Made by a program: the position numbers and the translations under genes. From contig OZ024741.1 in assembly GCA_964016885.1 (NCBI GenBank), forward strand, positions 35,216,001 to 35,280,000: a DNA stretch of 64,000 nt. Reading direction: 5' to 3'. Below the pieces are notes generated by a model. It saw nothing but the letters and a program-made list of their open reading frames with translations, searched no databases and had not been told where the DNA came from. This document shows, piece after piece, positions 161 through 63,414 of this stretch. This DNA comes from Eledone cirrhosa. Its lineage: Eukaryota. How positions within the stretch are numbered: position 1 is the first letter of the stretch; each line of letters opens with the position of its first letter.

Positions 161-1228
161 GGCAATTTATCCCTGTGTGGTCAAACGGCAGATAAAGTGA
201 AGCTTTCAGAATAATTCACTCATATTATTACTGGAAACGTAAGCCAAGCGGATCCAAAGACCCAGTCTTCGTTGAAGTGATAGTTCGAAACATGCGATCA
301 AAAACAAAATATCCCAGATATAAGTTATTAATACTATTTCAAATAATCAATACATTTAACATACAATTTACGAAGTCAACATGAAGAAATATACTCACTC
401 AATACTCGGTAAGCCTGGCAAAACTTCTGGAAGATAGAATGGATACAAAAAACAGTTAAAGTGTTCAGGTTCAACTGTGTTTACACTTTTTGAACTGGAA
501 CAACAAACTTGTCATTTCTATTTGTAATATTTAGGCTGCGATTTAAATAACTGTAAATTTATCTACAATCGAAGGATTGCATATAACTAGTTTATTAAAG
601 TTATAATTCAATTGAATTCATTAAATCTTTAAAACTTCTCAGTCAACATCAATAAAGGGTGTGTTGGAAAAACATCAAATATGTTCATCCATTAACCACC
701 CATTGACAAAAGTGAGATATTGAATTACACGTATAAAATGTCAGCACTGAATGAATAACAATTTTACATACCTTAATGTTTTAAAAATATAAGTCATACT
801 TCATATAGTGTCCTCATTTGTAATAATAAGAGATAATAATAATATTTGATCGCCAATGGACGCCACTATATTTCTCAACAACTCAAACGAAAGTACTTCA
901 GACTCGTTCAAGTCATGTGACCAGAGATCATAACGGAGTTATTTCCCTTTGTCTTTGGCGCATTCTGCTGTTGTTTAGCCTCGTTTATGTATAACTGGTC
1001 GAACTGACCTGTGATCCCGTGTTATTTTCAGAAATAGATATGTCTAAGACAACATTATCCCGTATATCCTTCTTTGTTTAAGATATTAAGATAGTATGGT
1101 GCGATTTCAGTGAGAATTAGCGGAGATTTCCAGCTTAATGCTAGCAAACTACAGTTTAATAGTGCTACCGCCCCCGAATTCCTTTCTTCATACCCTTCTT
1201 AATGACTTCTAGCATAGGCATAGGGCCA

Positions 1229-2993: not shown

Positions 2994-3146
2994 TAGTATA
3001 ATTAAAATTTCATACACTTAACATGTATGCACAACAATAGTTTCAGGGTCCAGTTATGCCCACCACTGTATAGTGGAGAAACTGTTTCAATAATAAAAAT
3101 AAAGTTTGCACATAGATGTTAAGTGTATGAAATTTTAATTATACTA
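2994..3146. repeat. Short foldback / MITE-like element with 31-bp inverted repeats
   Basis: 2994-3024 TAGTATAATTAAAATTTCATACACTTAACAT is the exact reverse complement of 3116-3146. Confidence 0.65.
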
Positions 3147-3291
3147 AATAAGCTCTCTTGAGCATTGTTTTCATTGGCTTTTTATCTACGGATATCCTGC
3201 ACGCATGCATATATACACACTTACATACATACGTACAAACACACACACACACGCACATATATATATATATATATATATATAGTAATAGTAG

Positions 3292-11965: not shown

Positions 11966-12879
11966 CTGCGTATCTTGTGCTTATTTTGATGTCACTAATA
12001 ACAATATATATATATGTATTTCGGAAAATAGACGTTAAACAATGATGATGATTTATTGTATACACGTGTTTTATTTGAAATCAAATAAAAACCTGTTATA
12101 TTTGGAAGATGGCACTATTGTTGCCCGCTAAAGCAAAGTAAACAAACATTTGAGAAACTTGTGGAAACTTGATGAAATGGTAAAAAATTATTATATGATC
12201 GAGTTGTGAAACAAAAACGACACTTAAAAACACTTTGGATATCAAAATACTAAAACTTCATAAAATATTCTTCACTCGTGGGAATTCACAAAACTGAGCC
12301 ATCTAAATGTGTTGATTAGTGACTTAAATATGAGTATATACAGTAAGTCTTTGGAAATAGGTTTGTTGCATCCTGTATCACATCATGGAGAAGGAAACCT
12401 GAAATAAAGAAGGAAAATTTCGATTAGAAATCTAGTTTTTTCTCATTGAACCCTATATACATCTCAGGGACATGGCTTTCACTTTGAAAATCAGATGGAT
12501 GCTTCAGTTCTGGTTAAGTGATGGCCTTCTGCAGGGTTTTGAAGGGGGCTTACAGTGATTTAAGGGGTCAATATGAACAATGAAACCCATTCTGGCACTG
12601 CCCTAGTATAATGACTGAAACAAGTAAAAGAATAAAAGAGCGAATGAATAGGAAAGGCACTGCTTTCAACTTTTAGTATTTTAATTCATACTGCCACAAT
12701 ATAATGCACCAAGTACACGCTGTAAAGTGGTAATACTGATGCCACAATAATATGCTCCCTAATACACTCTGTAAAGGGGGTTGGCATTAGGAAGGGCATT
12801 CAGCTATAAAAACCAAGCTAGCATGGAAGATAGACGTTAAACGATGATGATGATGTTTCTAGCATGGAAGCTGCATGTA

Positions 12880-13135: not shown

Positions 13136-13399
13136 TCTGTTAAACACCCAGACGCTCTTCTTGGCATCAACCATTTCAGTAGTCTCTTATGACCCATAGT
13201 CTACAAACAAGTATATACCAACCAAAGCAATATACAATGAAACAAAACTACAAACCTTAATTTGGAAACATGTGTGCGAAATATAAATGCCACTTCAAAA
13301 ACGATTTTGAGATTCTCTGATGTTCAGTTTTATCAGACCTACAAAAATAATTAGAAACATATTTATAAAACTTTATAAAATAAAATTAACATTTTTCAA

Positions 13400-13670: not shown

Positions 13671-15014
13671 CGAAGGTCACCCAGGGAGAAAGCCCACAAA
13701 AAGCCATAGTAACCCTCCCAGTTTGTCCTCTTCTAAGGAAAGTGGTAGGGTAATCCTCACAATGGACTCAACTGATAGCCAGATCTGTCCCACATGTGTT
13801 CAACATAAACCTACAAGTCAGCAATGCTTGGGTAATTGACGAGTGCATGCAGAACAGCTATATCATCCTACACACATCTTGGATAGGCCCGGCTTACGGC
13901 ACTGCTGTTCCTCTAGAGTTTATTTCAAACTGGCAATGCACCTTGGCAGCACTGCCAAGCTAGAGATTTCTGGAAGTTATCCATGGGCCCTAGAGAAAGT
14001 CCTCTGGAAAAGAGTGGCTAATTGATTTTCATCAATGTCCAGAGTCTCCCCAAGAACATCATCACTTTTACCCATTTCTAACCCTCTGTAGAACGCCAAA
14101 GTGGAGTTTCCTCTGATTGTACTGCCCAATTGGCAGAAGGCTGTGAGTGCTTAAAGACACTCAATTCATGTCCTATTGTGCCAAATCAGCGAGGGCATGT
14201 CTTCTTCTCATGTAGTTGGCATTGGTGTTGACGTTGCTATTGTTTTTGGCCTTTGTAGGTGCTGGTGGTGTTGAAAGGAGAGAGGGCCTTTCTTTCCTCG
14301 TGGTATATTATGGACAGAAAGCCCCATGAGTATTACACTTTGGTTTTCTACCTTCCATGATTATTGGAAGGTGGGTGCTATCTGCAAAATCTATCATATC
14401 AGGGATGCCCTTGATGTACATTTAGTCTGTTTGGATGAGTAGCTCCATCCTCGATCCAGACTAGTTTTATTTTTTGATTTTTGTACACCAATAAATTGAT
14501 TGTTTTGTCCTCAATGTCTGTTAGGACAGCTGTGACTAGCCAAGGAATGACTATTGTGGATGGCATGAGAGTGAGTTTGCTGCACCTGAGAGGAGCTAGG
14601 GAATGAGATTTTGCTTCCTGGGGTGTGAAACATAAAATATCCACCAACCCAATTTGTTTGCCTCGAGTGGTATGTTTTGCATGCTTTAGCTCCAATTGTC
14701 GCCATATAACAAAGTTGATTTTTCATCACGTTGGATGGAGGTTTGTGGATCCTTCTTTTCAACCATTTTCTTTGTCTCTGTTATTTCTTCCTCTTTGAGA
14801 GATTTTTGGTTGCCCCTGCAAAGGAAGCAGCTGGATGGATGGGTGCCCTTTTTGTGGCAACAGCTTCATTTTTCTTTGAAACCATGTTATTCATTACTTG
14901 ACTGGTTGACTGACTGGCCAACCCAGTGACAGACACTGTCTCAATTTTTTTTTAATTGTTGTTACTGTTGCTGAATAAATAAAACAAAGATATATTAATG
15001 GGGTAAAAACTTAC

Positions 15015-15068
15015 TGTTGATCAGTAGGAAAACATTTCTCAAAGTGCTCATACCATAAATCTGATTGT
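15015..15068 (-). CDS. Candidate internal exon of the gene at 16196-16939
   Basis: Acceptor TTTATTGCAG and strong donor GTAAGT flank 54 nt open in two phases; linkage to the upstream exon is unproven. Confidence 0.3.
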
Positions 15069-15755
15069 CTGCAATAAATAAATGAGAAGTTCCATTAAGA
15101 AAAAACTATTACAACCCCTACTAACATCCGAAAGTAGATTACTGTTTAGTGCCCAGTCTCATTACAATTTTGTTAATAATGCATGCTTTTTCATAATGAA
15201 AGTTTGTAGGGATATGTTTCTATGATGTAGCTTATGATTAATGATCCTTCGATTTCAGTAAACAACAAATTTCAGCATTGTCTGAATTTTCTTTTATAAA
15301 GTTAAATTCCTTCATTGTGGAGAACTAGTTTGGGTAAATCATTTCTCTTTAAATTGTAAATTAGTTGATAGGTTTTTTTTTTGTAGTCCCACTACTCAAG
15401 AACCCCATAACACCCTGGAAAGATAACCTTATGATTCATGTTGATGTAATATTAAATATATATATCCCCACACCACCCTTACTCTGTAAAGTTGTTGGTA
15501 TCACAAAAACATCCAGCCCATTGTAAAGTGGTTGTGAAGGTGTCACGACAAAAAGCACCCAGTCCACACTGTAAATGTGGTTGGCATTAAGAAGGGCATC
15601 CAGCTAGAAACAGTCCTATATGAGCGAGACACGGTCACTCGATCCAACTTGCTTCTAATGGGACAAACCCGCCTAACCCATGCTAACATGGAAAATAGAC
15701 GTTAAACGATGATGATGATATATATATATATTTAATTGTTTTAAAATTATTTCAT

Positions 15756-16195: not shown

Positions 16196-16939
16196 TTAGA
16201 ACTTAAAATTAAAATTGTGATGATAACAAATGAAAATACTATACATTTCATTGTCCAGGGGGGAGTACTTATTGACATCACATTTTTCTTCAATCATCGT
16301 CGGTGGAGTACAGTATCCACTTCTTTCAATTGAATAGTTTTCTTCAATAATAGTTGGGGGATTACAGAACTCACTTCCGTTTGCATCTATTTCTAGGTTC
16401 GTATTAACACTACAATTAATATGATCGTCTTCATCGCCGCTTGCATTCGAACAATATAGATCAATAATAGTCGGTGGTTCACAGAATATACTTTTGTTAC
16501 TCGATGCCCCCCAGCCAGCAACAGTGTGGCAGTTCTTCTTTAAAGGACTCTGAGAAATATCTTTCAAATGTTCATTTGATTTGGGCGCTATTTCTAATTT
16601 ACTCGCCACATTTTGAGTAGCGTTGTGTTTACGAGATGTCGAGCCCTTTTTTTTGCTTACTATACTCTTTGTTCGACGTTTCGCGATTTTCTTGCAGTTG
16701 CCGAACGCAAACTTTTTAACAAATTTGCGTCGCATTTTCTTTATTTTAGATACATAGGAAGATTGTGTAGAAGAAACAGATTTCTTTCTTGAAATATCCG
16801 ACAGTCCGCTATCATGGAATAACTTATTTAGATCGACCACTTCACAATCACTAAATGTATGATCGAATAGTTCGAATACCTCTTCGAATTTCTTCCGTTG
16901 TATTTTCCTGTTTGCCTCCAGGCATTTTACTAAATCCAT
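16196..16939 (-). CDS. Host gene exon; candidate Scm3/HJURP-like CENP-A chaperone (N-terminal domain, basic region, three CxPPTxI repeats)
   Basis: 247-codon non-TE ORF in otherwise decayed DNA. Residues 3-40 align gaplessly to the Scm3 domain pattern. The true 3' exon boundary is probably a GT near 16238-16245. Coding status is more secure than the identity. Confidence 0.55.
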   Translation of the reverse strand: MDLVKCLEANRKIQRKKFEEVFELFDHTFSDCEVVDLNKLFHDSGLSDISRKKSVSSTQSSYVSKIKKMRRKFVKKFAFGNCKKIAKRRTKSIVSKKKGSTSRKHNATQNVASKLEIAPKSNEHLKDISQSPLKKNCHTVAGWGASSNKSIFCEPPTIIDLYCSNASGDEDDHINCSVNTNLEIDANGSEFCNPPTIIEENYSIERSGYCTPPTMIEEKCDVNKYSPLDNEMYSIFICYHHNFNFKF

Positions 16940-17139
16940 AATAACTGAATCTGATCGTGGCGTGATTATATTCTCTGATGTTTTAAACGTTGAGAATAGA
17001 TGACAACCTGAGCGGTGTAATGTGACTTAAGTGATCGCTGAACTATTTAGCAGTTCACCGGTAATTTCACAACAGGTGTTAGTTGCAGAAGCAAACTCGT
17101 CTCATTTGAAATGTGCGATATATTTAGCAACATTGTCTT

Positions 17140-17862
17140 TTTTTTAATTTTTTTTATCGTATACATTTTTATTTTACAAAGCATATAAATAAATTTACAG
17201 TAGAATAACATAACAAATATGTTTTAAATATATACATAAATAACATTACAAATGCTTAGATAACATAAATTGCTCGCGATTCTTTCAGAAGGATATATTC
17301 TTTTAATGTTGCAATATTAAAGAAAATTTAAAGGAAGGGGTGAACAACCGAGCCAACACCAGAGCAAAAGAAAAGACAGCAGCATCGCGATGAGTACCGG
17401 GCAACCTCTCTAATGATTTTTGAGGCAAGCCAGCACACTGCAGCGTTGCCTCGGGTGATGGCGAGGCTAATGCTCTGGAACAACCAAGCGCCCTCACGAG
17501 ATTTGCTAGTTACCTCTATTAGGCGAGCCGCCAGTGAAGAGAGGAACCTCGCAGTCAGCGGCCCGACTCCCCCAAACGCCTCGAAAGTCACAGGCTGAAA
17601 AATGTAGCTGGCCGACAGATCACAATATTTGAGGGTCTTACTCCACTCGGCTGCGGAAACTGTGGCTCTCGTCCTAACCGCAGCATTCAGGATGTGGGAA
17701 GAAGCAAAAGAGTCACTAATAGTGACGTTCCAGACAAGGCACCTGCCTCTCGACCAAGGGCACAGGGTAAGACCGTCAGGTCTTTTGCTGTCACTTCTGG
17801 ACAACCCAGATGGTTCTAAGATTGAGGAGATGTTCGCCCGGATCAAAGCTCTCTTGAGAATA
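17140..17862 (-). mobile_element. CRE-like retrotransposon 3' fragment with 3' UTR and A-rich end, copy 3
   Basis: ORF 17328-17876: KRPDGLTLCPWSRGRCLVWNVT, FQPVTFEAFGG, FQSISLAITRGNA. Confidence 0.85.
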
Positions 17863-18540
17863 AACACCCAGCACAAAATAAAACAATTCTTATTTTATTC
17901 CATTTAAATTATACTAGAACAGCTACCTTGCGATGTCGAGATATTCATAAAATAGAATTTCCGAGTTACTGTAGAAGTTGACTGAATAAAGGTTTTGCAT
18001 TGAACTGTTTTGGGACTTTTCTGTAGTAAGGGTGTCGGACTTCGGGTTCGATTCCTGGATTAGGTTGTTCTTGATTAAAAACACTTCATTTCACGTTACT
18101 CAAGAATAGTCAGCTGAAAAATAGTACCAGCAACAACTGAGTGTTTAATCCTTCGATGGACTGGCGTCCTATCCAGTGATTTAAAAAAAATATTTTTTCT
18201 CTTTTTCGCGTTGATTATATATTTTTGTGTATAATATTTATAAGGTTTCCAGCAATAATTAATTGATTATATGTATGATTTTCTATTTAGTCTTATATAT
18301 TTATTATATGATAATGAAGTTTCAAAGGTACAAAAAAAAACAAAAAAAAATACTGAATACTTTCAAAGGCAGTTTTGTTTCCTTTTATGGTCATTATTCA
18401 CTTGAATTTTAACGTTTTTGGGAAATCGTTTTGCCAACTTCAATTGCACGACAACATTGATTATTGATCAATCTAAGGAATAATTCAGTAAATTTTTTTT
18501 TATACAAAACAGAAGCAAATATATTTATTTCTATTGTTAC

Positions 18541-20184
18541 AATAACGCTTTCAACTCTGTCAGCCGCGATGTCGTCCCCAGTTCAGTAAAAGAGAGGGCC
18601 CCACAGCTCCACCACTTCGCTTGGCAGGCTTATCAGGAGCCCTCCTATCTCTCTTTTGGTGACCAAATAATCACCTCTGCCTCAGGAGTCCAACAGGGCG
18701 ACCCACTCGGGTCCTCTCTGTTTGCACTGGGAATTGATGACATCACCAAGATGGGGTTGAGTTGGCCCTCAACGTCTGGTATCTCGAAGACGATTGTTTG
18801 GGGGGACCTCCGGATAAGGTTCTCGCCACTGCTAACAAAATGGTTGAGAAGCTTGTCCGTCGTGGTCTCCAGTTCAATAGCTCCAAATTCACATTAGGAG
18901 CTATTGAACTGGATACCCCCAACGGGATCCTCAACCACACGGCTTCTCAACATCAACAGACAATTGACGTGTTTACAGTGTCCTTCCCTTCCATTGCGGT
19001 CCTTCCCTCGTCGGTTTGGAGTTCCTTAGGAGCCTTAATTACAGACTTTACCTTCGAGTCAATCTTCCTATCGAAGATGGTTGGCCTTGAGCAGTTGCTG
19101 ATGAATATCGAAGCAATCGAACCCCATCAAGGTTTTTTCATACTCAGAAACTACTTTTCGATTCCTAAGCTTCTATATCTGCTCAGGGTCAGCCCTTCTC
19201 ATAGATTTCCGTCCTGCCTCTAACGCCTCTACGACCTAATCTTCGAGAGTCTCAAGTACTTAGTCAATGCCAGATTCTTTCCAGAGTCCCGTGATCAGGC
19301 TGTGTTACCCAAGCGATTTGATGGTTTTGGTCTTCATAAATGTTCGTCCTTCTCTCTTCCCCGCTTCCTTTCCTCCACCCTGGTGAGCAACATACTCTCC
19401 TCTCCAACATGAACTAGTTCCAACAGGATGAATCTCTCCAACAATGGAATGAGTTGGGCTTGTATGTTCCTGAGAAGGTGGAGGACAGTCGAAGTCAGAG
19501 AACTTGGGACAGCATAAGTTCGAAGGCCACCTTCGACTCCCTCTTCGTCCAGTCGGATCAGTTTTCAAGGTGCCGCTTACTGTCTGCCAGCGCCAAATAT
19601 TCAGGTGACTGGGTTGATGCCCTACCCGTGGCTAACGTTGGTGGCCTACTCAGCTTGGACGAACTTCGTGTCTCGATTGCCCTCACAGTGGGAGCTGACG
19701 TCTGTACGGGTTTGAGGTATCGATGTGGCAAACTTCTCGACTCCACGGTCTTTCTGAATGCCAGTCGTTTCACACGTCACACGGAGCTAAACCTTATTCT
19801 CAAGAGAGCTTTGGCTCGAGCAAATATCCCCTCAATCTTGGAACCATCTGTGTTGTCCAGAAGTGTTGGGAAAAGACCTGACAGTCTTACCCTGTGTACC
19901 TGGTCGAGAGGCAGATGCCTTGTCTGGGACGTCACAGTGGGTGACTCTTTTGCTTCTTCCCACATCCTGGATGCTGCGGTTAGGGCGAGAGCCACATGTC
20001 CGCAGCCGAACAACGGAACAAAATCCTAAAATACTGTGATCTGTCGAGCAACTACATTTTCCAGCCTGTGGCGTTCGAGACGTTTGGGGGAGTCGCGCTA
20101 CCGACTGCGAGATTCCTATCTTCACTGGCAGCTCACCTAACAGAGGTAACTGGTGAATCTCGCGAGGGCGCTTGGTTGTTCCAG
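18541..20184 (+). mobile_element. CRE-like retrotransposon copy 4, 5' part (RT to RLE), interrupted by the Gypsy element
   Basis: NAFNSVSRD, SGVQQGDPLG, WYLEDD, SIPKLLYLLR, KRPDSLTLCTWSRGRCLVWDVT, ending GAWLFQ; frameshifted. Confidence 0.85.
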
Positions 20185-20587
20185 TGTAGCAGTGAATAAA
20201 ATGTATTTTCCTTCTGCGGAGGAATGGTGTTACGGAGGTAAGTTGGCTGAAGTGTGAGCCAATCAAAACCTTCGGCGCACTAATTCGACTGTCCAGAACT
20301 ACGTCACCAGGGTGAGCGGAGGTGACGAAGAGAATCAGTAGTCTACACGCACCTCTCTTATCGACAAGACCAGGCTACACTCATCGCTGCTAACAACATC
20401 TCCATCTTGCAATGAAGCGGACCAAACTACATCCTACACATGTAGATACGACCTGTACCTAATGTATCCGTTCAACATGTACGACTAATAAATAGAGTTA
20501 CAACATCGATAATGGATTTAGTTAATGTTCTAAATGCCTTCTGATCTCTATTATGTATATTAAGAATTGACCCTAAAACCCGTTATA
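20185..20587 (+). repeat. 5' LTR
   Basis: TGTAGC...GTTATA; I see two substitutions relative to the 3' LTR. Confidence 0.95.
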
Positions 20588-20607: not shown

Positions 20608-21249
20608 ACGATACAACAAATCACATTATAAATGGTGACCCGAACGTTTAAGGACATCAACACAGAAGAAACCACATCTTTCCGTTGCAACGAACACATC
20701 AACATTTCGCACCCCCCACCCCCCCCCAAAAAAACAAAGCCACTCGCCTTTTCTCGGGGTATGTACGCGATTAGCGTGAGTCCTAATATGTATTTGATAT
20801 ATTGTCTTATTGTTACTAAATCTGCACATCACACCTTCACTTTCTAACATCACCGAACACATGCGTTAATACAAAAATCTTATTTTCCCCTCTCAATTTC
20901 TGATTGGGCGACGCTATTAAAAAAACTAAAAAAAAACTGTTGGTGCTGATAGCCGGTCAGAGCAAGATGGCCGACTTCCGTCTTCTACAGCTGTTTTCCC
21001 GCCAAAACGACGGAGGCAACGCCATTTTGAAAAGTACACAAAAAAAAAAAAATAATAGGACAAAGATAAATCATAATTTTTTTTTTTAAAGCTTGACGTT
21101 TTTCCCTCCAACATTGTTTTTGATATATTTTTCTTTTTCTGTCCTTCACTCGGATTATATTTTTTCTTGGCCTGAATTTTCACTTTTGTCTCGGTGACAA
21201 GTGCAGAGTTGTCCTTTCTTTGCCCTTTGCTTTTACATCAGTATACACA

Positions 21250-22158
21250 ATGGGTAGCACTTCATTGCCACCGTTTACCGGTGACGTCACTGTCTGGTTC
21301 GCCCAGATAGAAGCACATTTCACAGCGAATAACATCATCAGTGACCACAGACAGTTAAATCTCCTGTTAAGCGCTTTTCCAGCGTCATTGACGTCGGTCG
21401 TCAAAGACTTAATTACCGATCCTCGCCCTGGGGCCTCCTATGAGAGCGTGAAGCTCGAAGTGTTGCGGCGGACCACATTGTCCGCAGAAAAAAAATTTCA
21501 GACGCTCGTCAATGACGAACATTTGGGTGATCGGGCGCCCACACAACTACTGCGTCGGATGAGAGAGCTGGCGGAAGATGCCCCAGCTGACAGTGCCCTC
21601 CTTAGACAGCTTTTTGTCTCAAGGCTACCCCCCGGAGTTCAGGCGATCTTAGCGCCCATGATGGAGGCTGCTCCTGTCGACCAGCTAGCGGCTTCGGCCG
21701 ACAGGGTTATGAGTGTCATCGGACACCCAGCCTCATTTGCCCCCTTCCAGGCACCTCAGCCACCGGCTGCGGTCAATCCGTTCTCTCCTGCCTCCTTCCA
21801 GGCACCTCAGCCACCGGCTGCGGTCAATCCGTTCGCTCCTGTCTCCGTCAATGTATCCCAGCCGCCGACTGCGGTCGCTTCCTTCACTCCAGCGGCTGCC
21901 AGTTATACCGACCAGTCACTTGCAAATGCAGCAATGCTGCAAGCAATAGAGCAGCTAACCAAGGAAGTGAGAAAACTAAGCACTCACAGGGCTCATTCGC
22001 CCAGACGCCGTTTCCAGAGCCGTTCACCCTCGCCACGACGCCGTCACACAAGCAGTTCAGGTTTGTGTTACTACCACAGCCGTTTTGGCGCAGCAGCACG
22101 CTCCTGTAAACAGCCTTGTACATTTTCAGACCAGGGAAACAGATTTCAGGAGACCTGA
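21250..22158 (+). CDS. gag: Gag protein of the Gypsy element
   Basis: ATG at 21250; WFAQIEAHF N-terminal motif, RS-rich tract, CYYHSRFGAAARSCKQPC knuckle. Confidence 0.9.
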   Translation: MGSTSLPPFTGDVTVWFAQIEAHFTANNIISDHRQLNLLLSAFPASLTSVVKDLITDPRPGASYESVKLEVLRRTTLSAEKKFQTLVNDEHLGDRAPTQLLRRMRELAEDAPADSALLRQLFVSRLPPGVQAILAPMMEAAPVDQLAASADRVMSVIGHPASFAPFQAPQPPAAVNPFSPASFQAPQPPAAVNPFAPVSVNVSQPPTAVASFTPAAASYTDQSLANAAMLQAIEQLTKEVRKLSTHRAHSPRRRFQSRSPSPRRRHTSSSGLCYYHSRFGAAARSCKQPCTFSDQGNRFQET

Positions 22159-25100
22159 GCACGGCACAGTCTCCTCTGACCCTTCCTAATAACCGTGTGT
22201 TTTTCATCACAGACACTGAGTCGTAAGCACGTTGTCTGATCGACACCGGCGCGGCTTGTAGCATTTGGCCGCTAAAACTTCTCAAAGAGAAGCCCCAACT
22301 CTCAACCGTCTCTCTGCAAGCAGTAAACCAGTCACCGATCCCCACGTACGGTCAAATTTCTCGTTCTTTGAACCTGGAATTGCGTAGAGATTTCACGTGG
22401 ATCTTCACTGTTACTGATCTGCCTTACCCCATCCTAGGCTCAGATTTCCTGCACCACTATAACTTGATAGTGGATATGCGCAGACGCCGGTTGTTGGATG
22501 CCAACACAGAACTGTCTGTGCCGGGTACCAGATCGACTGTCTCGTCGGTCAGCCCGGTCTTCTTTATCGCTGCTACAGAAGATCCTTACCAATCACTTTT
22601 GCATTCCTTCCCGGAATTAACAAATTTGAATTTTGTGATGAGTGAGCCTACTCACTCCACCAAGCACCACATTGAAATATCCGGAGCTCCTGTGTTTTCG
22701 CGCCCTCGCCGTCTCTCTGCTGAGAAACTGAAGGCCGCAAAGGCTGAATTCAATCACATGCTGCAGCTCGGGATCATTCACCCATCCTCAAGCCCGTGGG
22801 CCGCACCCTTGCATTTGGTACCAAAGCGTTCCGGTGATTGGCGTCCCACTGGGGACTTTCGCCGGTTAAATGCAATGACGGTACCCGACCGCTACCCGAT
22901 ACCACACATACAGGATTTTGCATCTTCGCTGCATGGATGCAACATATTCTCCAAATTGGATTTGGTCAAAGCATACCACCAAATCCCGGTGAACCCGGCA
23001 GACATACCTAAAACTGCAGTAACAACTCCATTTGGAGCGTTTGAATTTTTGACCATGCCTTTCGGTTTGCGAAACGCAGCCAGCACGTTCCAACGATTTA
23101 TGGATGAAGTTGTGCGCGATTTAGACTTCATGTACAACTACATCGACGACATTCTTGTGGCAAGTGCCTCACCTGAGGAACATGTCATTCACCTCCGTCT
23201 CCTGTTCGAGAGATTTTCAAAAATACCAAGTGAGAATTAATCCGGCAAAATGTGTTTTCGGTGCTTCCTCGCTTGTCTTCTTGGGCCATGTCATCAGCCC
23301 AGAAGGAATTTCGCCACTACCTGATAAAGTGAAAGCGGTACAAGACCTCCAACCACCCACTTCACTTCGTCAACTACGACATTTCCTTGGGCTACTGAAC
23401 TATTACAGGCGCTTTATCCCACACTGTGCGGATCTCCTGTCTCCTCTGTCCGACCTGTTACGTAACAGGAAAAAGAAGAACGATTCCATTTCATTGGACA
23501 CGAATCAGCTAAAAGCCTTCGACGAAGTGAAGCGGAAGCTTGCGGAGACATCATTGCTTGCACATCCTGTGTCTGGTGCCCAGTTTTCACTGGTTGTTGA
23601 TGCATCAGGCACAGCTGTAGGTGCAGTACTGCAACAACATCACCAACAACAGTTACAACCTCTTGCCTACTTTTCTAAACAGCTGAAGCCTGCAGAAACA
23701 CGGTATAGCACATTCGGCCGTGAACTCTTGGCTATGTACCTTGCAGTGAAACACTTTCGGCATTCACTGGAGGGTCGCCAATTTGTTATATACACTGACC
23801 ACCGTCCGCTTACGTTCGCACTGCGTTCTAAGCCGGACAAATATTCACCTCGCGAGACTCGCCACTTGGACTTCGTTTCGCAATTTACCAGCGATATCCG
23901 ACACATCTCTGGTGAACAGAATGCGGCGGCAGATGCACTGTCTCGCCTCCCAATTAATTCCCTGTCATCGCCAGCGGAAATCGACCTCCAACGAATGGCC
24001 ACAGAACAACCACCTCTGGATACTTTGGACCTCTCGTCTTCTGAATTTGCAACTGGCAAATTTGCATATCTGCCTGTGCCCACTTCGGACACACAGATTA
24101 TCTGCAACACCTCGACAGATGCACCTCGCCCTCTAGTGCCAGTGACTCATCGTCGAGCAGTTTTCGACACCTTGCACGGTCTGGCACACCCTGGAATATC
24201 GACCACAGTGAAGCTCGTTTCGGCTAGATTCTTCTGGCCTAATATGAGGCGTGACATCACTGCCTGGACACGTTCCTGCCTATCCTGCCAAAAGTCAAAG
24301 GTGCACAAACACATCCGCGCACCCCTTGGAACTTTCAGCACTCCAGACGCTCGGTTCAGCCATGTCCATATATATCTTGTCGGACCATGGCTGGTCAGCC
24401 GAGGATTTACATACCTCCTGACCTGCATAGATCGCTTCACACGTTGGCCTGAAGCCATTCCTTTAAGTGACATTTCGGCGGAATCTGTAGCGCGAGCCCT
24501 AGTATCGGGTTGGATATCGCGTTACGGAGTTCCAGCCACTATCACCACTGACCGCGGTGGACAATTTGAGTCACACCTTTTCCGAGAGCTTTCAAGGATC
24601 CTGGGAATGCAACGCATTCGAACGACCAGCTACCATCCAGCTTCTAACGGAATGATTGAACGCTTCCACCGCCAATTGAAAGCCGCACTGCGCGCTTATC
24701 CGGATCAGCAGCGGTGGAGCGAATATGTACCAATTGTCCTCCTGGGCTGTCGTGCAGCCATCAAGGAAGATCTAGGCTACTCCCCCGCCGAGTTGGTTTA
24801 CGGAGTGCCTATATCTCTGCCTGGTCAGATGTTAGCTCCATTGGACCTACCAACAACAGACCCAGCTTTGTATGTGAGCAGACTGCAATCATATTTCAGC
24901 AATCTTCCGCCTATGCACCCTCGCCAACAGACAATCAAATCTTCGGTCCCGAAAGACATTGCTTCATGGACCCACGTCTTTTTACGAAAGGACGCCGTGA
25001 GAGCTCCTCTCATGCCACCTTATACCGGTCCCTATCGCGTGCTTGAGCGCACAGATAAGCTATTCACCCTAGACATTGGGGGTAAAAAAGAGACTGTGTC

Positions 25101-25296
25101 CATTGACAGGGTAAAACGGGCCTATACAGACACTCTCACACAAGAGCCCCATTCCCCCCCCCCCCCCACATACACCTGGCATCAGCCAAGCCACAATACA
25201 CATATAACATCGCCTACACCTACATATGTCACCACCACACGTAGCGGTCGGCGAGTACATTGGCCCAAGAAGCTTTGCAAGACTCTTTATATATGA
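22134..25296 (+). pseudogene. pol: pol (protease, RT, RNase H, integrase), entered by -1 frameshift; disrupted
   Basis: LIDTGA, YIDD, VDAS/ELLA/TDH/ADALSR, HHCC and GPY motifs. TAA at 22224-22226, +1 frameshift near 23214-23217, integrase HIYLVGP in place of HIDLVGP (24373-24375). Confidence 0.9.
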
Positions 25297-53080: not shown

Positions 53081-58319
<5,239 letters not shown>

Positions 58320-60868
58320 ATAATGAGTTCATATATAAAGAACTCAGAAAAAATTATAAAAAATCTAATAATGCGTCACTCACCAACATCAACAACAAAA
58401 CACACAACATAGTAAAAAAAACTAAACATTGAAGATAGAACTGAACCTTTGGCATTGAAAAGACCACACTTCAACCTGAAGGATCATAAATCAAACTTTA
58501 ACTCAAATCCTTCTATTAGACTTATATGTCCCTCCAAATCAGATATTGGAATAATTAGCAAAAAAATTTTGGATAGAGTCATCCCACAAATAAGAAAACA
58601 CGTTATTTTACCACTCTGGGAAAACACCTCCCAGGTAATTAACTGGTTTAAAAATATTAGATGTAAATCTTCTGCTTCATTTCTACAATTTGATATAGAT
58701 AATTACTATTCTTCTATATCACCTATACTCCTGAACAAAGCATTGATATTTGCTAAAAATAGATCTAACTTAACTTTGGATGACATTAATATTATTACAC
58801 ATGCTAGACTAACACTTATTGAATTTCAGAATGAATACTGGACCAGAAACACATATAGTAATCTATTTGATATTACTATGGGTTCAAGCGATTCCGCCCA
58901 AATTACTGATCTTGTGGGCCTCTTTCTCCTTTTCAACATAAATGCCTCCTTTCCCCACCTCAAAGGTGGTTTATATCGTGATGACTGTCTTCTTCTTTCT
59001 AACAACCTTAGCCTTTCAGAAATTGAAAAAAACAAAAAACATATTAGAACTTTCCTTAAAGACTATTATAATCTTCATATTACTTTTGAAAAAACAAGTA
59101 AAGTAGTAAATTTCCTAGATATAACTTTAGATTTAGCTACGGGTATCTACCAACCTTACCATAAACCAAACCAAAACTTACATTACATACACTCACAATC
59201 TAATCACCCTAAATCTATCCTTAAAAACCTTGCATATAATATATCACTTAGAATTTCTAACCTTTCTTCTAACCAAGATGTATTTGATAAAAATGCGACC
59301 TTCTATAACGAAGCTCTAGATAGAAGTGGCCACAAAAATAGATTAGAATATATACCTTCTACTAAAAATACTGAAAGCATACAACCTAATATTACCAACA
59401 AACACCAAATGAAAAGTACACACCTAAATGCCACCCACACTATACCCCAAAATACCAAATCTTCTAATATAAAATATAGTAACTCTCAAAAAACTACTCA
59501 TCATACAACTCTAATAAATATTAATAATAAAACTCCTAATAAAAAGGATAAAACACCTAAATCTACAAATATAACTAAAAATGGTTGTGGTGAGATCATT
59601 AACATTAATCCTCCTAGTAAACATCACGATACAACCTATAAAAATAATAAAAATAATAAACAACATAGAGACCGTAATAGACGGGTTACTTGGTATAATG
59701 CTCCATTTAATTTACAAATTAAGGATAATATTGCTAAAAAATTTTTTTATATCCTAGAGAAAAACTTCCCGCCAAACCACAAATACCATCAAATCTTAAA
59801 TAGGTCTACAGTTAAATTCTCATACTCTACAACAAATAACATAAAACAAAATATAAGTGCCTATAATGCATATAAATGTAAGAAAACCATAAGTATACCA
59901 CCAGTACATCAAATTAACCATAATATCTCCTCAAATACAGAATTAACGAAAGGTTGTAACTGTAGAAACAAAGCAAACTGCCCATTAAAAGGGAATTGTC
60001 TTGTTAACAACATAGTCTATAAATGTAATGTTAAAACTAAAGATTCTATTTGCTCATATATAGGAGCTACCTCTAACAATTTTAAGACAAGGTTTAATAC
60101 CCACAAGCATAGTTTTAAAAATGCCGCACTGGCTAATACAACATCTCTAGCAGAAAAAATCAATAGTTATAAAAATAAGAATATAGAATATGATTTGACC
60201 TGGAGTGTGCTCAAAAGAGCCACCCCTTATCAAAATAATAGAAATGAATGTAGATTATGTTCCCAAGAACTATTTGAAATAATGAAATCTAAGGATATCC
60301 TATTAAATAAACGACAGGAATTAATTATATCGTGTAATCATAAACTAAAAAAAACATTTAAATATTATAAACCTAATTAATAACATTATTTTAGAAATTA
60401 ATTTAATTTAAATGTTAGTTAACCTATAAATTTAATTTAATTAAAATTCTATTACAGATGAGAATATAAAATATTGTGTAATCATAAATTGTGAAAAACC
60501 TTTAAATATTACTAATATATACTTAGTAATTTAATTTATAGATTAATTTTAATTTATTTAAACCTTTTATTAAAATTCCTTTACAGATAAAATATAACAA
60601 AATATCGTATATCCAATGACAGAGAAATAATTTTTAGTATTATAGACCTAATTAATATACATTTTAGAAATATATTTATAATTTGGTTTTAAATTTAGTC
60701 AACCTAAAAATTTAATTTAATTGGCTTAAAATTAGTATCCTTATACAGACGGATTGCAGAATGTCATGTAATCATAGAATGGGATGTGTTTTGGATATAT
60801 ACCTAGTTAATATATTCTTTGCAATTTTTGAAAAAATATGTATATGTATGTATGTATATGTATGTATA

Positions 60869-60911
<43 letters not shown>

Positions 60912-61744
60912 ATGTATATATATATGTGTATGTATATGTATATGTATATGTATTAATTTTGATTTCTATTTGCATATAATTATATTCTGCTATTGATAAA
61001 ATACAATATCTGTTTTATTTATTATATACCTAATTAACATATACTATAGAAATTAATATATAATTTTTAATTTAGTTAACCTATAATTTATATTCTACTA
61101 CCGATGTAATACTTTATTTGTTTTTTCCCTATTACTAAATTCATTTCCTAATATTGATACCATAACGTTATTAACTTTAATTTAGTTATACTATAATTAA
61201 TACTCTACTACTATTTAACTTCAAAATTCTGCTTCAAATATTATAAATCTAACTAATTTACACCTTAGAAATCAATATGTTAACTATCTTTAGTTTAGTT
61301 AACATATAATTAATGGTATACTTATTTATTTTGAAATGCATAAATTTTGCCTTATTTCTTGTATTTCCTAACACTGAAACTATGTAAAAACATACATTGG
61401 ATCCAGATACAGATAATATTCTATGTTTCTTGAAACATATATTTACTATAATCCCCTTCTCCACCCCCCCCCCCTTTCCCCCATACTATTATCATCTGTG
61501 TTTGTAAGCGTGTATGTATGAATATATATGTAGGTAGGTGTATATATGTTTGGGTATTTATATCTGAATATAAAAATACATATATGCGCATGCAAATAAG
61601 AATGTAAGATTGTGTGTATATATATGTGTGTATGTATATATATGTGTGTATATATGCATGTGTATATATATGTGTATGTGTATGTGTGTATGTGTATATA
61701 TATGTGTATATGTGTATATGTGTGTGGGCGTGTATGTGTGTATG

Positions 61745-61781
<37 letters not shown>

Positions 61782-62036
61782 GTGTGTATGTATGTATGTA
61801 TATATGTGTGTGTATATATATGTATGTCTCTCTATTTATATGTCTATCTTCGTATCTATGTGGGTATATGTGTGTATGTGCATGTATGCACATGTATGTG
61901 TTTACGTGTATATGTGTGTATGTGTATGTATGTGCGTGTGCGCACACACATATATATGTGAGTGTGTGTGTGTGTGTGTGTGTGTATATGTATATATATA
62001 TATATATATCTATGTGTGTATATATGTCTATATTCG

Positions 62037-62091
<55 letters not shown>

Positions 62092-62671
62092 TATTATTAT
62101 AATATAACTTATGTGTATGTGTGTATATGTGAGGGTGTGTGTATGTATATATATGTGTATATATATGTGTAAAAAAATATATATATGTATGTCTGTTTTT
62201 TGTGTGTGTGTATATATATGTATGTGTATATATATGTGTATGTGTGTGTTTGTATGTTTTGTATGTGTGTTTATGGTTGTATGTGTGTGTGGGTGTATAT
62301 ATATAAATGTATGTGTGTATATATATATATATATATATGTGTGTATATATATCTCTATTAATGCGTGTATATATGTATATGTATATGCCTTTTTCTTTGT
62401 ATGTCTGAGTTGTGTGAGGGTGTAGTGGTGTTTGTATGTATATACGCATATATGGATGCGTATGTATTTGTATATATGAGTATATGTAAGTGCATATGTA
62501 TGTATGAATATATATCTAATTCTATGTATGAGTATATATGTGTGTGTATGTATGTTGTGTGTGTATGTATGTATGTGTCTATGTGTGTATATATATGTAT
62601 ATATGTGTGTGTATGTATGTATGTATGTGTATGTATGTACATATATGTCTATGTATGTGTGTATGTATATG

Positions 62672-62706
<35 letters not shown>

Positions 62707-62898
62707 TTATTTTATATATATGTGTGTGTGTGTATGTGTGTGTGTGTATATATATATCTTTATATATGTGTATGTGTATGTTCGTGTAGGTGTATGTGTG
62801 TGTATGACTATATATGTATGTATGTATGTGTGTATGTATGTATATGTATGTGTGTGTACATGTATGTATGTGTATGTATGTATATGTGTGTATATGTG

Positions 62899-62933
<35 letters not shown>

Positions 62934-63239
62934 ATGTATATATATATATATATATGTATATGTATCTCTATTTGTATATGTATATGTATATAGGTATATA
63001 CCTTTTTCTTTGTATGTCTGAGTTGTGTGAGAGTGTAGTTGGTGTTTGTATGTATATACCGATATATGGATGCGTAAGTATTTGTGTGTATGTATGTATG
63101 TATATCTGTATGAATTTGCGTCTATATATAGGTATGTATGTGTATATCTGTATGTATATAAGTATGTATGTGTATGTATATGTGCGTGTATGTGTGTATA
63201 TATATGTGTGTCTATATAGTATGTGTGATTATATGTGTA

Positions 63240-63298
<59 letters not shown>

Positions 63299-63414
63299 GT
63301 ATGTGTATATATGTGTGTATGTGTGTATTTGTATATGTTTATATATGTGTGTGTATGTATGTTCTAAGTGTGGATGTGTGTATATGTATGTATGTGTTTG
63401 TGTATATATATATG

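Follow-up and report, generated by a model that had tools for sequence, protein, structure and literature searches.

The window analysed here, a stretch of 64,000 nucleotides from the genome of Eledone cirrhosa, contains on its minus strand a gene that is very probably the octopod orthologue of the CENP-A chaperone HJURP/Scm3. The gene extends a known family, of which it is apparently the first cephalopod member. As support for this identity we count a docking-type pass of the N-terminal region in predicted complexes with a CENP-A candidate and H4, the ranking of human HJURP in a profile search, and the conservation of the N-terminus among octopods.

The spliced product of the gene comprises 276 residues and is assembled from four exons with GT-AG introns. 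The structure was derived from a contig of run X3 (record 17), which aligns to the window in three pieces, 16994–16245, 13336–13252 and 12394–12111, and leaves 56 bases unplaced. X3 is regarded as RNA-derived for the sole reason that its contig is without introns; the run is unlabelled, belongs to one study with the other three runs, and informs on splicing rather than on tissue or level. Exon 1, as far as the X3 contig reaches, spans 16245–16994 on the minus strand (bases 1–750 of record 17) and is followed by a GT donor after 16245. It begins with a 55-nt leader that contains no ATG and leads to the start codon at 16939; its true 5' end lies beyond what a contig can show. We infer an exon 2 of 54 nt at 15015–15068 (minus strand) from the 56 unplaced bases, from X3 read depth in the 14844–15211 bins, which indicates a small exon near 15040, from its AG/GT ends, and from the four exon lengths, which add up to exactly 1175 nt, the full length of the X3 contig. 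The exon is further supported because the C-terminus of the resulting product aligns with the O. vulgaris (16/44) and Argonauta (15/44) proteins. Exon 3 (83 nt, 13256–13338, minus strand; bases 807–891 of record 17) contains the stop codon at 13259–13257, and exon 4 (12111–12398, minus strand; bases 892–1175) is a non-coding 3' exon with polyadenylation-type hexamers shortly 3' of it, at 12075 and 12057. The 247-residue open reading frame seen at this place is exon 1 continued into the intron, and the spliced product has another C-terminus.

An in-frame stop lies just upstream of the 55 covered leader bases. The Octopus gene models have about 50 more N-terminal residues, whereas E. cirrhosa has an in-frame stop at that place. 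The leader at 16940–17056 (minus strand) can be aligned with the 50 extra N-terminal residues annotated in O. vulgaris but contains the stop, and these residues may therefore be untranslated leader, or may have been lost in E. cirrhosa.

The surroundings of the gene contain retroelement remnants, as judged from the lists of open reading frames. The gene itself is not one of these repeats, as an earlier note made from the letters of this DNA had held in calling its reading frame unrelated to transposable elements: the 3.0-Gb genome has a single match to each of three queries, namely the DNA, a 60-residue domain and the O. vulgaris orthologue. By eye, several degraded R2/NeSL-like LINE copies with a restriction-like endonuclease region occupy window positions 17300–20200, 1–150 and 1870–2960, one of them about 300 bp upstream of the start codon region of the gene. 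A Gypsy/Ty3-like retrotransposon, likewise labelled by eye, lies at 21124–25296 on the plus strand, with gag-, protease/RT- and RNase H/integrase-like reading frames in separate frames. A Penelope-like element, again so labelled by eye, at 57714–60380 has RT- and GIY-YIG-like reading frames, the endonuclease part being found on both strands, and is flanked by long CA/TA microsatellite tracts in mirrored arrangement, at approximately 54500–56500 and 61500–63400. At approximately 399–427 (minus strand) there is a short stretch bounded by AG and GT, possibly an exon belonging to another gene nearby.

The protein begins with a Scm3/HJURP-like domain (residues 1–41; 16817–16939, minus strand), which was delimited from conservation, the profile match to human HJURP, the Pfam Scm3 matches of its orthologues, and structure models. 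It features a long helix, an LF pair that replaces the KY of the family, F29, an acidic and hydrophobic strand, and a short predicted helix at residues 37–42. In the monomer model the first helix spans residues 3–30, and the short helix is modelled at lower confidence (mean pLDDT 73). The hydrophobic moment of the N-terminal helix is unexceptional and was reached by 849 of 10,000 shuffles. Residues 41–120 (16580–16819, minus strand) form a poorly conserved Lys/Arg-rich segment with 24 K/R in 80 residues, whose composition suggests that it is likely a DNA-binding or nuclear-import region. An acidic region follows with three C-x-P-P-T motifs (16286–16495, minus strand; Cys at 153, 192 and 210), each preceded in E. 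cirrhosa by an aromatic residue. All five octopod proteins compared have three copies of the motif, those of Argonauta being separated by very different spacers. The C-terminal block, residues 233–276 encoded by exons 2 and 3, is conserved and contains two Trp/Phe-rich segments. Pfam gave no matches at E ≤ 10 for any of three queries, the repeat region and two orthologue C-termini, and no internal likeness was found between the N- and C-terminal blocks (hhalign probability 0.4%). The earlier note had described an N-terminal domain followed by low-complexity sequence; the position of the domain stands, but the remainder is better described as a tail that turns from basic to acidic and bears three conserved copies of a motif.

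Orthologues were found in other octopods, in line with the expectation that the DNA comes from a mollusc; the closest named relatives are those of O. vulgaris, O. sinensis and Argonauta hians. A phmmer search of 1.84 billion representative sequences returned two matches, P0002 (E 8e-39) and the Argonauta hians protein P0003 (E 3e-13). A profile of the N-terminal region, which matched 3 of 254 candidates, added the O. vulgaris protein P0005, whose cluster contains O. sinensis LOC115216700. The named orthologues are thus O. sinensis LOC115216700, O. vulgaris CAI9727844.1 and Argonauta hians GAB1601124.1, all annotated as "uncharacterized" or "hypothetical", and orthology spans the N-terminal block, the triple motif and the C-terminal block. 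Word-indexed homologue searches with the 247-residue reading frame gave no matches at E ≤ 1 among 119 and among 600 candidates, though true orthologues exist. No squid, bivalve, gastropod or other named non-octopod relative was reached among the 1.84 billion representatives or the 254 profile candidates, and for this reason the connection with HJURP of bivalves and gastropods is drawn by eye only.

Conservation is highest at the N-terminus. Residues 1–41 are identical at 30–31 of 41 positions to P0002, P0005 and P0007, the highest value of six segments, and the next two segments are identical to the same three proteins at 17–20 of 59 and 14–18 of 48 positions. In the comparison with Argonauta, residues 1–41 (16/41) and the repeat region (29/70) are conserved to about the same degree. 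Residues C32, V35, D36 and N38 are invariant in all four aligned octopod sequences. The protein accordingly has a short N-terminal domain that is its most conserved part, about equal to the repeat region when Argonauta is the reference, and a polar and divergent remainder. Members of the published family have a short N-terminal domain, a polar disordered remainder and one copy per genome (available text of PMC13322267). We count this fit of architecture in favour of the HJURP identity.

The family signal is visible through the orthologues only and not from the E. cirrhosa sequence alone. The quoted residues on which the earlier note was based are indeed the translation of 16939–16820 on the minus strand, and on the HMMER register a count by hand recovers the gapless alignment to human HJURP that it had proposed, with identities at 10 of 38 positions (L3, L7, A9, R11, E23, F29, D31, V34, V35 and L40), and also the replacements that it had pointed out, Q14 lying under the conserved human F and L24-F25 under KY. 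A match to the Pfam Scm3 profile, which the note had proposed as a check, was obtained from the orthologues but not from the E. cirrhosa protein itself. All five of the whole orthologues that were scanned match Scm3 weakly and under the 24.3-bit cut-off, with E-values of 8.2e-4 (P0002), 0.014 (P0003), 0.047 (P0005) and 0.11 (both P0006 and P0007); 52-residue pieces reached a best E of 4.9e-5 (2 of 3 members matching) and, in a further set, 0.0033, again under the cut-off. A profile built from three octopod sequences placed human HJURP (3r45_C) first among 177,635 PDB sequences, with an E-value of 0.016 and a gapless HMMER alignment of profile positions 2–40 to residues 18–56 of 3r45_C (39 columns). 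With a four-sequence profile human HJURP was still first among the 177,635 sequences, at a weaker E of 0.087. This comparison was an hmmsearch on PDB sequences; the next matches span only 15–23 columns, and chains of yeast Scm3 and of CAL1 were missing from the results of both profiles at E ≤ 10. Searches of the PDB with a single sequence by phmmer gave no matches, among them one at E ≤ 10 with 70 residues of the E. cirrhosa protein. Foldseek with the 52-residue monomer model also returned no matches, a helix and a loop giving little signal, and the ESM Atlas gave no usable feature match, its structure rows being unrelated helices. Taken together, the weak Scm3 matches of the orthologues, human HJURP as the top PDB match and the lack of a confident match to any other family support the Scm3/HJURP-type reading with which the earlier note had begun.

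A Pfam match to Mei5 (E about 2) was set aside as noise. The scan of the genome with Pfam Scm3 scored only three candidates and missed the candidate gene itself; its single match, in locus L002 (G000:C6), was rejected, having an E-value of 8 and an internal stop and belonging to a dispersed repeat for which 12 matches were counted. The peptide of this repeat illustrates that in a genome of 3 Gb short Scm3-like matches can be expected by chance.

The protein's own first 40 residues match DAXX_hist_bd weakly over residues 2–25 with an E-value of 0.096, as might a general or H3.3-type (DAXX-like) histone chaperone whose helix binds H3/H4, and the complex model described below covers only the CENP-A candidate with H4. 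On the other hand, the match is far below the cut-off (13 bits against 27), none of the five whole orthologues scanned shows it, a separate DAXX locus on C5 passes the Pfam cut-off, and F29 and the VVDL segment, which match scm3, lie outside the part aligned to DAXX. We therefore regard a DAXX-like identity as very improbable.

A scan of the genome for histones gave 71 matches, and 11 of the best loci were translated and four further stretches examined. On C8 there is a two-exon H3-like gene (G000:C8, minus strand; L021:1498–1725 for the fold exon and L034 at approximately 3000–3200 for the upstream tail exon). Its whole histone fold is encoded in one exon and is identical to H3 at 44 of 76 positions, with F84W, Q68M, a divergent helix 2, and a loop 1 no longer than that of H3; its best PDB matches are H3 chains. 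The upstream exon encodes a short divergent tail unrelated to that of H3. Besides this tail and the fold, hallmarks that we assume to be characteristic of CENP-A led us to take this locus as the CENP-A candidate. Yippee-Mis18 family matches are present on C20 and C23, and together with the CENP-A candidate these partner genes are counted in favour of the HJURP identity. The C23 matches (L044 and L045) are two exons, presumably of a gene of Mis18/OIP5 type, and the C20 match (L043) presumably represents YPEL.

Residues 1–52 were modelled with the CENP-A candidate and the genome's own H4, without use of the octopod alignments. The complex scored 0.86, 0.86 and 0.87, and the best of three controls scored 0.02. 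Of solved pairs, 51 of 78 attain the mark used for this score, as do 2 of 108 mismatched pairs; among eukaryotes the figures are 71 of 105 solved and 2 of 126 unrelated pairs. The score does not tell CENP-A from H3, and near relatives of a partner reach the mark as well. The score may moreover derive from memorised structures, and because complexes of this sort are already solved, the pass is taken as likeness and not as binding. At least 85% of the contacts are common to the runs, and the partner pLDDT is at least 79. The model shows the helix-plus-strand docking on CENP-A/H4 that the earlier note had anticipated. The predicted helix, residues 3–28, runs antiparallel along CENP-A helix 2 with F18, V21, F22 and F25 buried. 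F25, the aromatic residue at the KY position, is placed between helix 2 of CENP-A and helix 3 of H4, where it touches CENP-A A35 and H4 A83, V86 and V87, and is the lowest-error contact of the model. V34-V35 is predicted to pair with the CENP-A loop-1 strand R27-W28-Q29-S30. Thirteen of the 14 invariant residues lie inside the predicted interface, which covers 27 of the 41 residues of the domain (P 0.009).

These results also bear on the possibility that the gene is an unrelated octopod orphan whose N-terminal helix is scm3-like by chance. The match covers only about 40 residues with marginal E-values, and single sequences, Foldseek and the Atlas gave nothing. Set against this, two libraries (Pfam and PDB) indicate one family, which had been named before testing; two unrelated proteins of similar size scored 0.00 in the same complex; and the position and architecture fit too. 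An origin by chance is very improbable.

At the KY position E. cirrhosa has LF, and the three other aligned octopod sequences have RF, RY and RF; the lysine has been replaced by Leu in E. cirrhosa and by Arg in the others, and the aromatic residue is kept. According to the available text of PMC13322267, KY is near-universal but not obligatory, having been lost in some Diptera, and orthologues without it were accepted; its contact is a conserved CENP-A glutamate. By our own mapping this glutamate seems to be kept in the CENP-A candidate, as E38 of the modelled domain. Human HJURP (PDB 3R45; PF10384) and the octopod protein share the N-terminal position of the domain, the hydrophobic register, the F after the KY position, the VV strand and, as predicted for the octopod, a helix-plus-strand docking on CENP-A/H4. 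Unlike human HJURP, the octopod protein has LF for KY, has 276 residues against 748 (PMC13322267, table S1), and is without a conserved block past residue 41 for further strands. The two repeats R1/R2 by which human HJURP binds Mis18 (available part of PMC6731319) were not recognised in the octopod protein, and no sequence link to them was found in a comparison made without profiles.

By eye, the octopod domain resembles those of the lophotrochozoan HJURP candidates in PMC13322267, with the same helix, then F, then D/E-x-V/I-D-L. In the alignment rows consulted, those candidates differ in retaining KY, and in most of them a further hydrophobic and D-x-G segment follows, for which the octopod sequences have no counterpart; the Biomphalaria candidate has 929 residues. 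With Drosophila CAL1 the octopod protein shares the loss of KY with retention of the aromatic residue, two aromatics seven residues apart, a conserved C-terminal block, and a second, short helix that follows the loop, which is predicted in the octopod and described for CAL1 in the available part of PMC7110144. The spacing and placement of F18/F25 match those of CAL1 W22/F29, which are described as packed between helix 2 of CENP-A and helix 3 of H4, and the antiparallel helix mode is common to such chaperones (PMC7110144). The octopod domain differs from CAL1 in that its sequence is nearer to the scm3 domains of vertebrates and fungi.

The lost KY lysine could also be expected of an HJURP descendant that is a diverged paralogue or is without CENP-A specificity, another gene doing the loading. 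By eye, the octopod sequences have not kept the hairpin-type residues that follow the D-L motif in the mollusc domains already published. The Pfam Scm3 scan missed the candidate gene and could likewise miss another. Nevertheless, the DNA, the 60-residue domain and the O. vulgaris protein revealed no paralogue (one match each), the sole other Scm3-profile match is the rejected repeat with its internal stop and E of 8, and dipteran CAL1 still functions despite having lost KY (PMC13322267, as far as available). A diverged paralogue, or a descendant without CENP-A specificity, is very improbable.

By inference from the family, octopod HJURP would deliver freshly synthesised dimers of CENP-A and H4 to centromeres. 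Its N-terminal helix and strand would capture pre-nucleosomal CENP-A/H4, in the manner of the predicted docking and presumably with a preference for CENP-A over H3. By analogy with the available description in PMC7110144, the bound chaperone would keep CENP-A/H4 from forming tetramers before it is deposited, and would then hand over CENP-A/H4 at the centromere, as is expected of the family. More speculatively, the basic segment might bind DNA, and the triple C-x-P-P-T motif or the C-terminal aromatic block might target the centromere via Mis18 or CENP-C. It is conceivable, if rather doubtful, that octopod HJURP has evolved along a path like that of CAL1, and independently of it, in which the KY lysine and the extra strands were dropped, a short helix serves as a cap, the protein was reduced to about 280 residues, and targeting depends on the triplicated F-C-x-P-P-T motif or the twin-aromatic C-terminal block and not on R1/R2-type repeats.

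The earlier note called this family hard to detect beyond fungi and vertebrates, a view that is no longer current. Hollis et al. 2026 (PMC13322267, available to us in part) report HJURP orthologues in the gastropods, bivalves, annelid and flatworm Biomphalaria, Pomacea, Crassostrea, Mizuhopecten, Capitella and Schistosoma, and accepted members at E-values similar to or weaker than those of the octopod proteins. A gene of this kind would be expected by specialists, because the survey shows the family across Metazoa including molluscs. The words "Octopus", "cephalopod" and "mollus" are absent from its main text, and none of the cephalopod names and accessions looked for was found in its text supplements; the supplementary PDF or figures may list one. 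Searches for octopus with CENP-A and HJURP, for LOC115216700, and for an scm3 domain in squid found no paper in the literature covered, most subscription journals being outside its scope. Molluscan CENP-A, including its expression in gonad and early embryo, has been described, in the available text of PMC12210499, without mention of HJURP.

The present assignment gives an identity to a centromere gene, likely an essential one, whose annotation in three octopod species is "uncharacterized", and, as far as the available text of the survey extends, fills its cephalopod gap (PMC13322267). At 276 residues the protein is among the most compact animal candidates, for which table S1 of the same paper gives 288–1823 residues. 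Being compact and without KY outside the flies, it therefore tests which contacts a CENP-A chaperone needs, and a lineage-specific targeting module may be sought in its conserved triple motif and C-terminal block.
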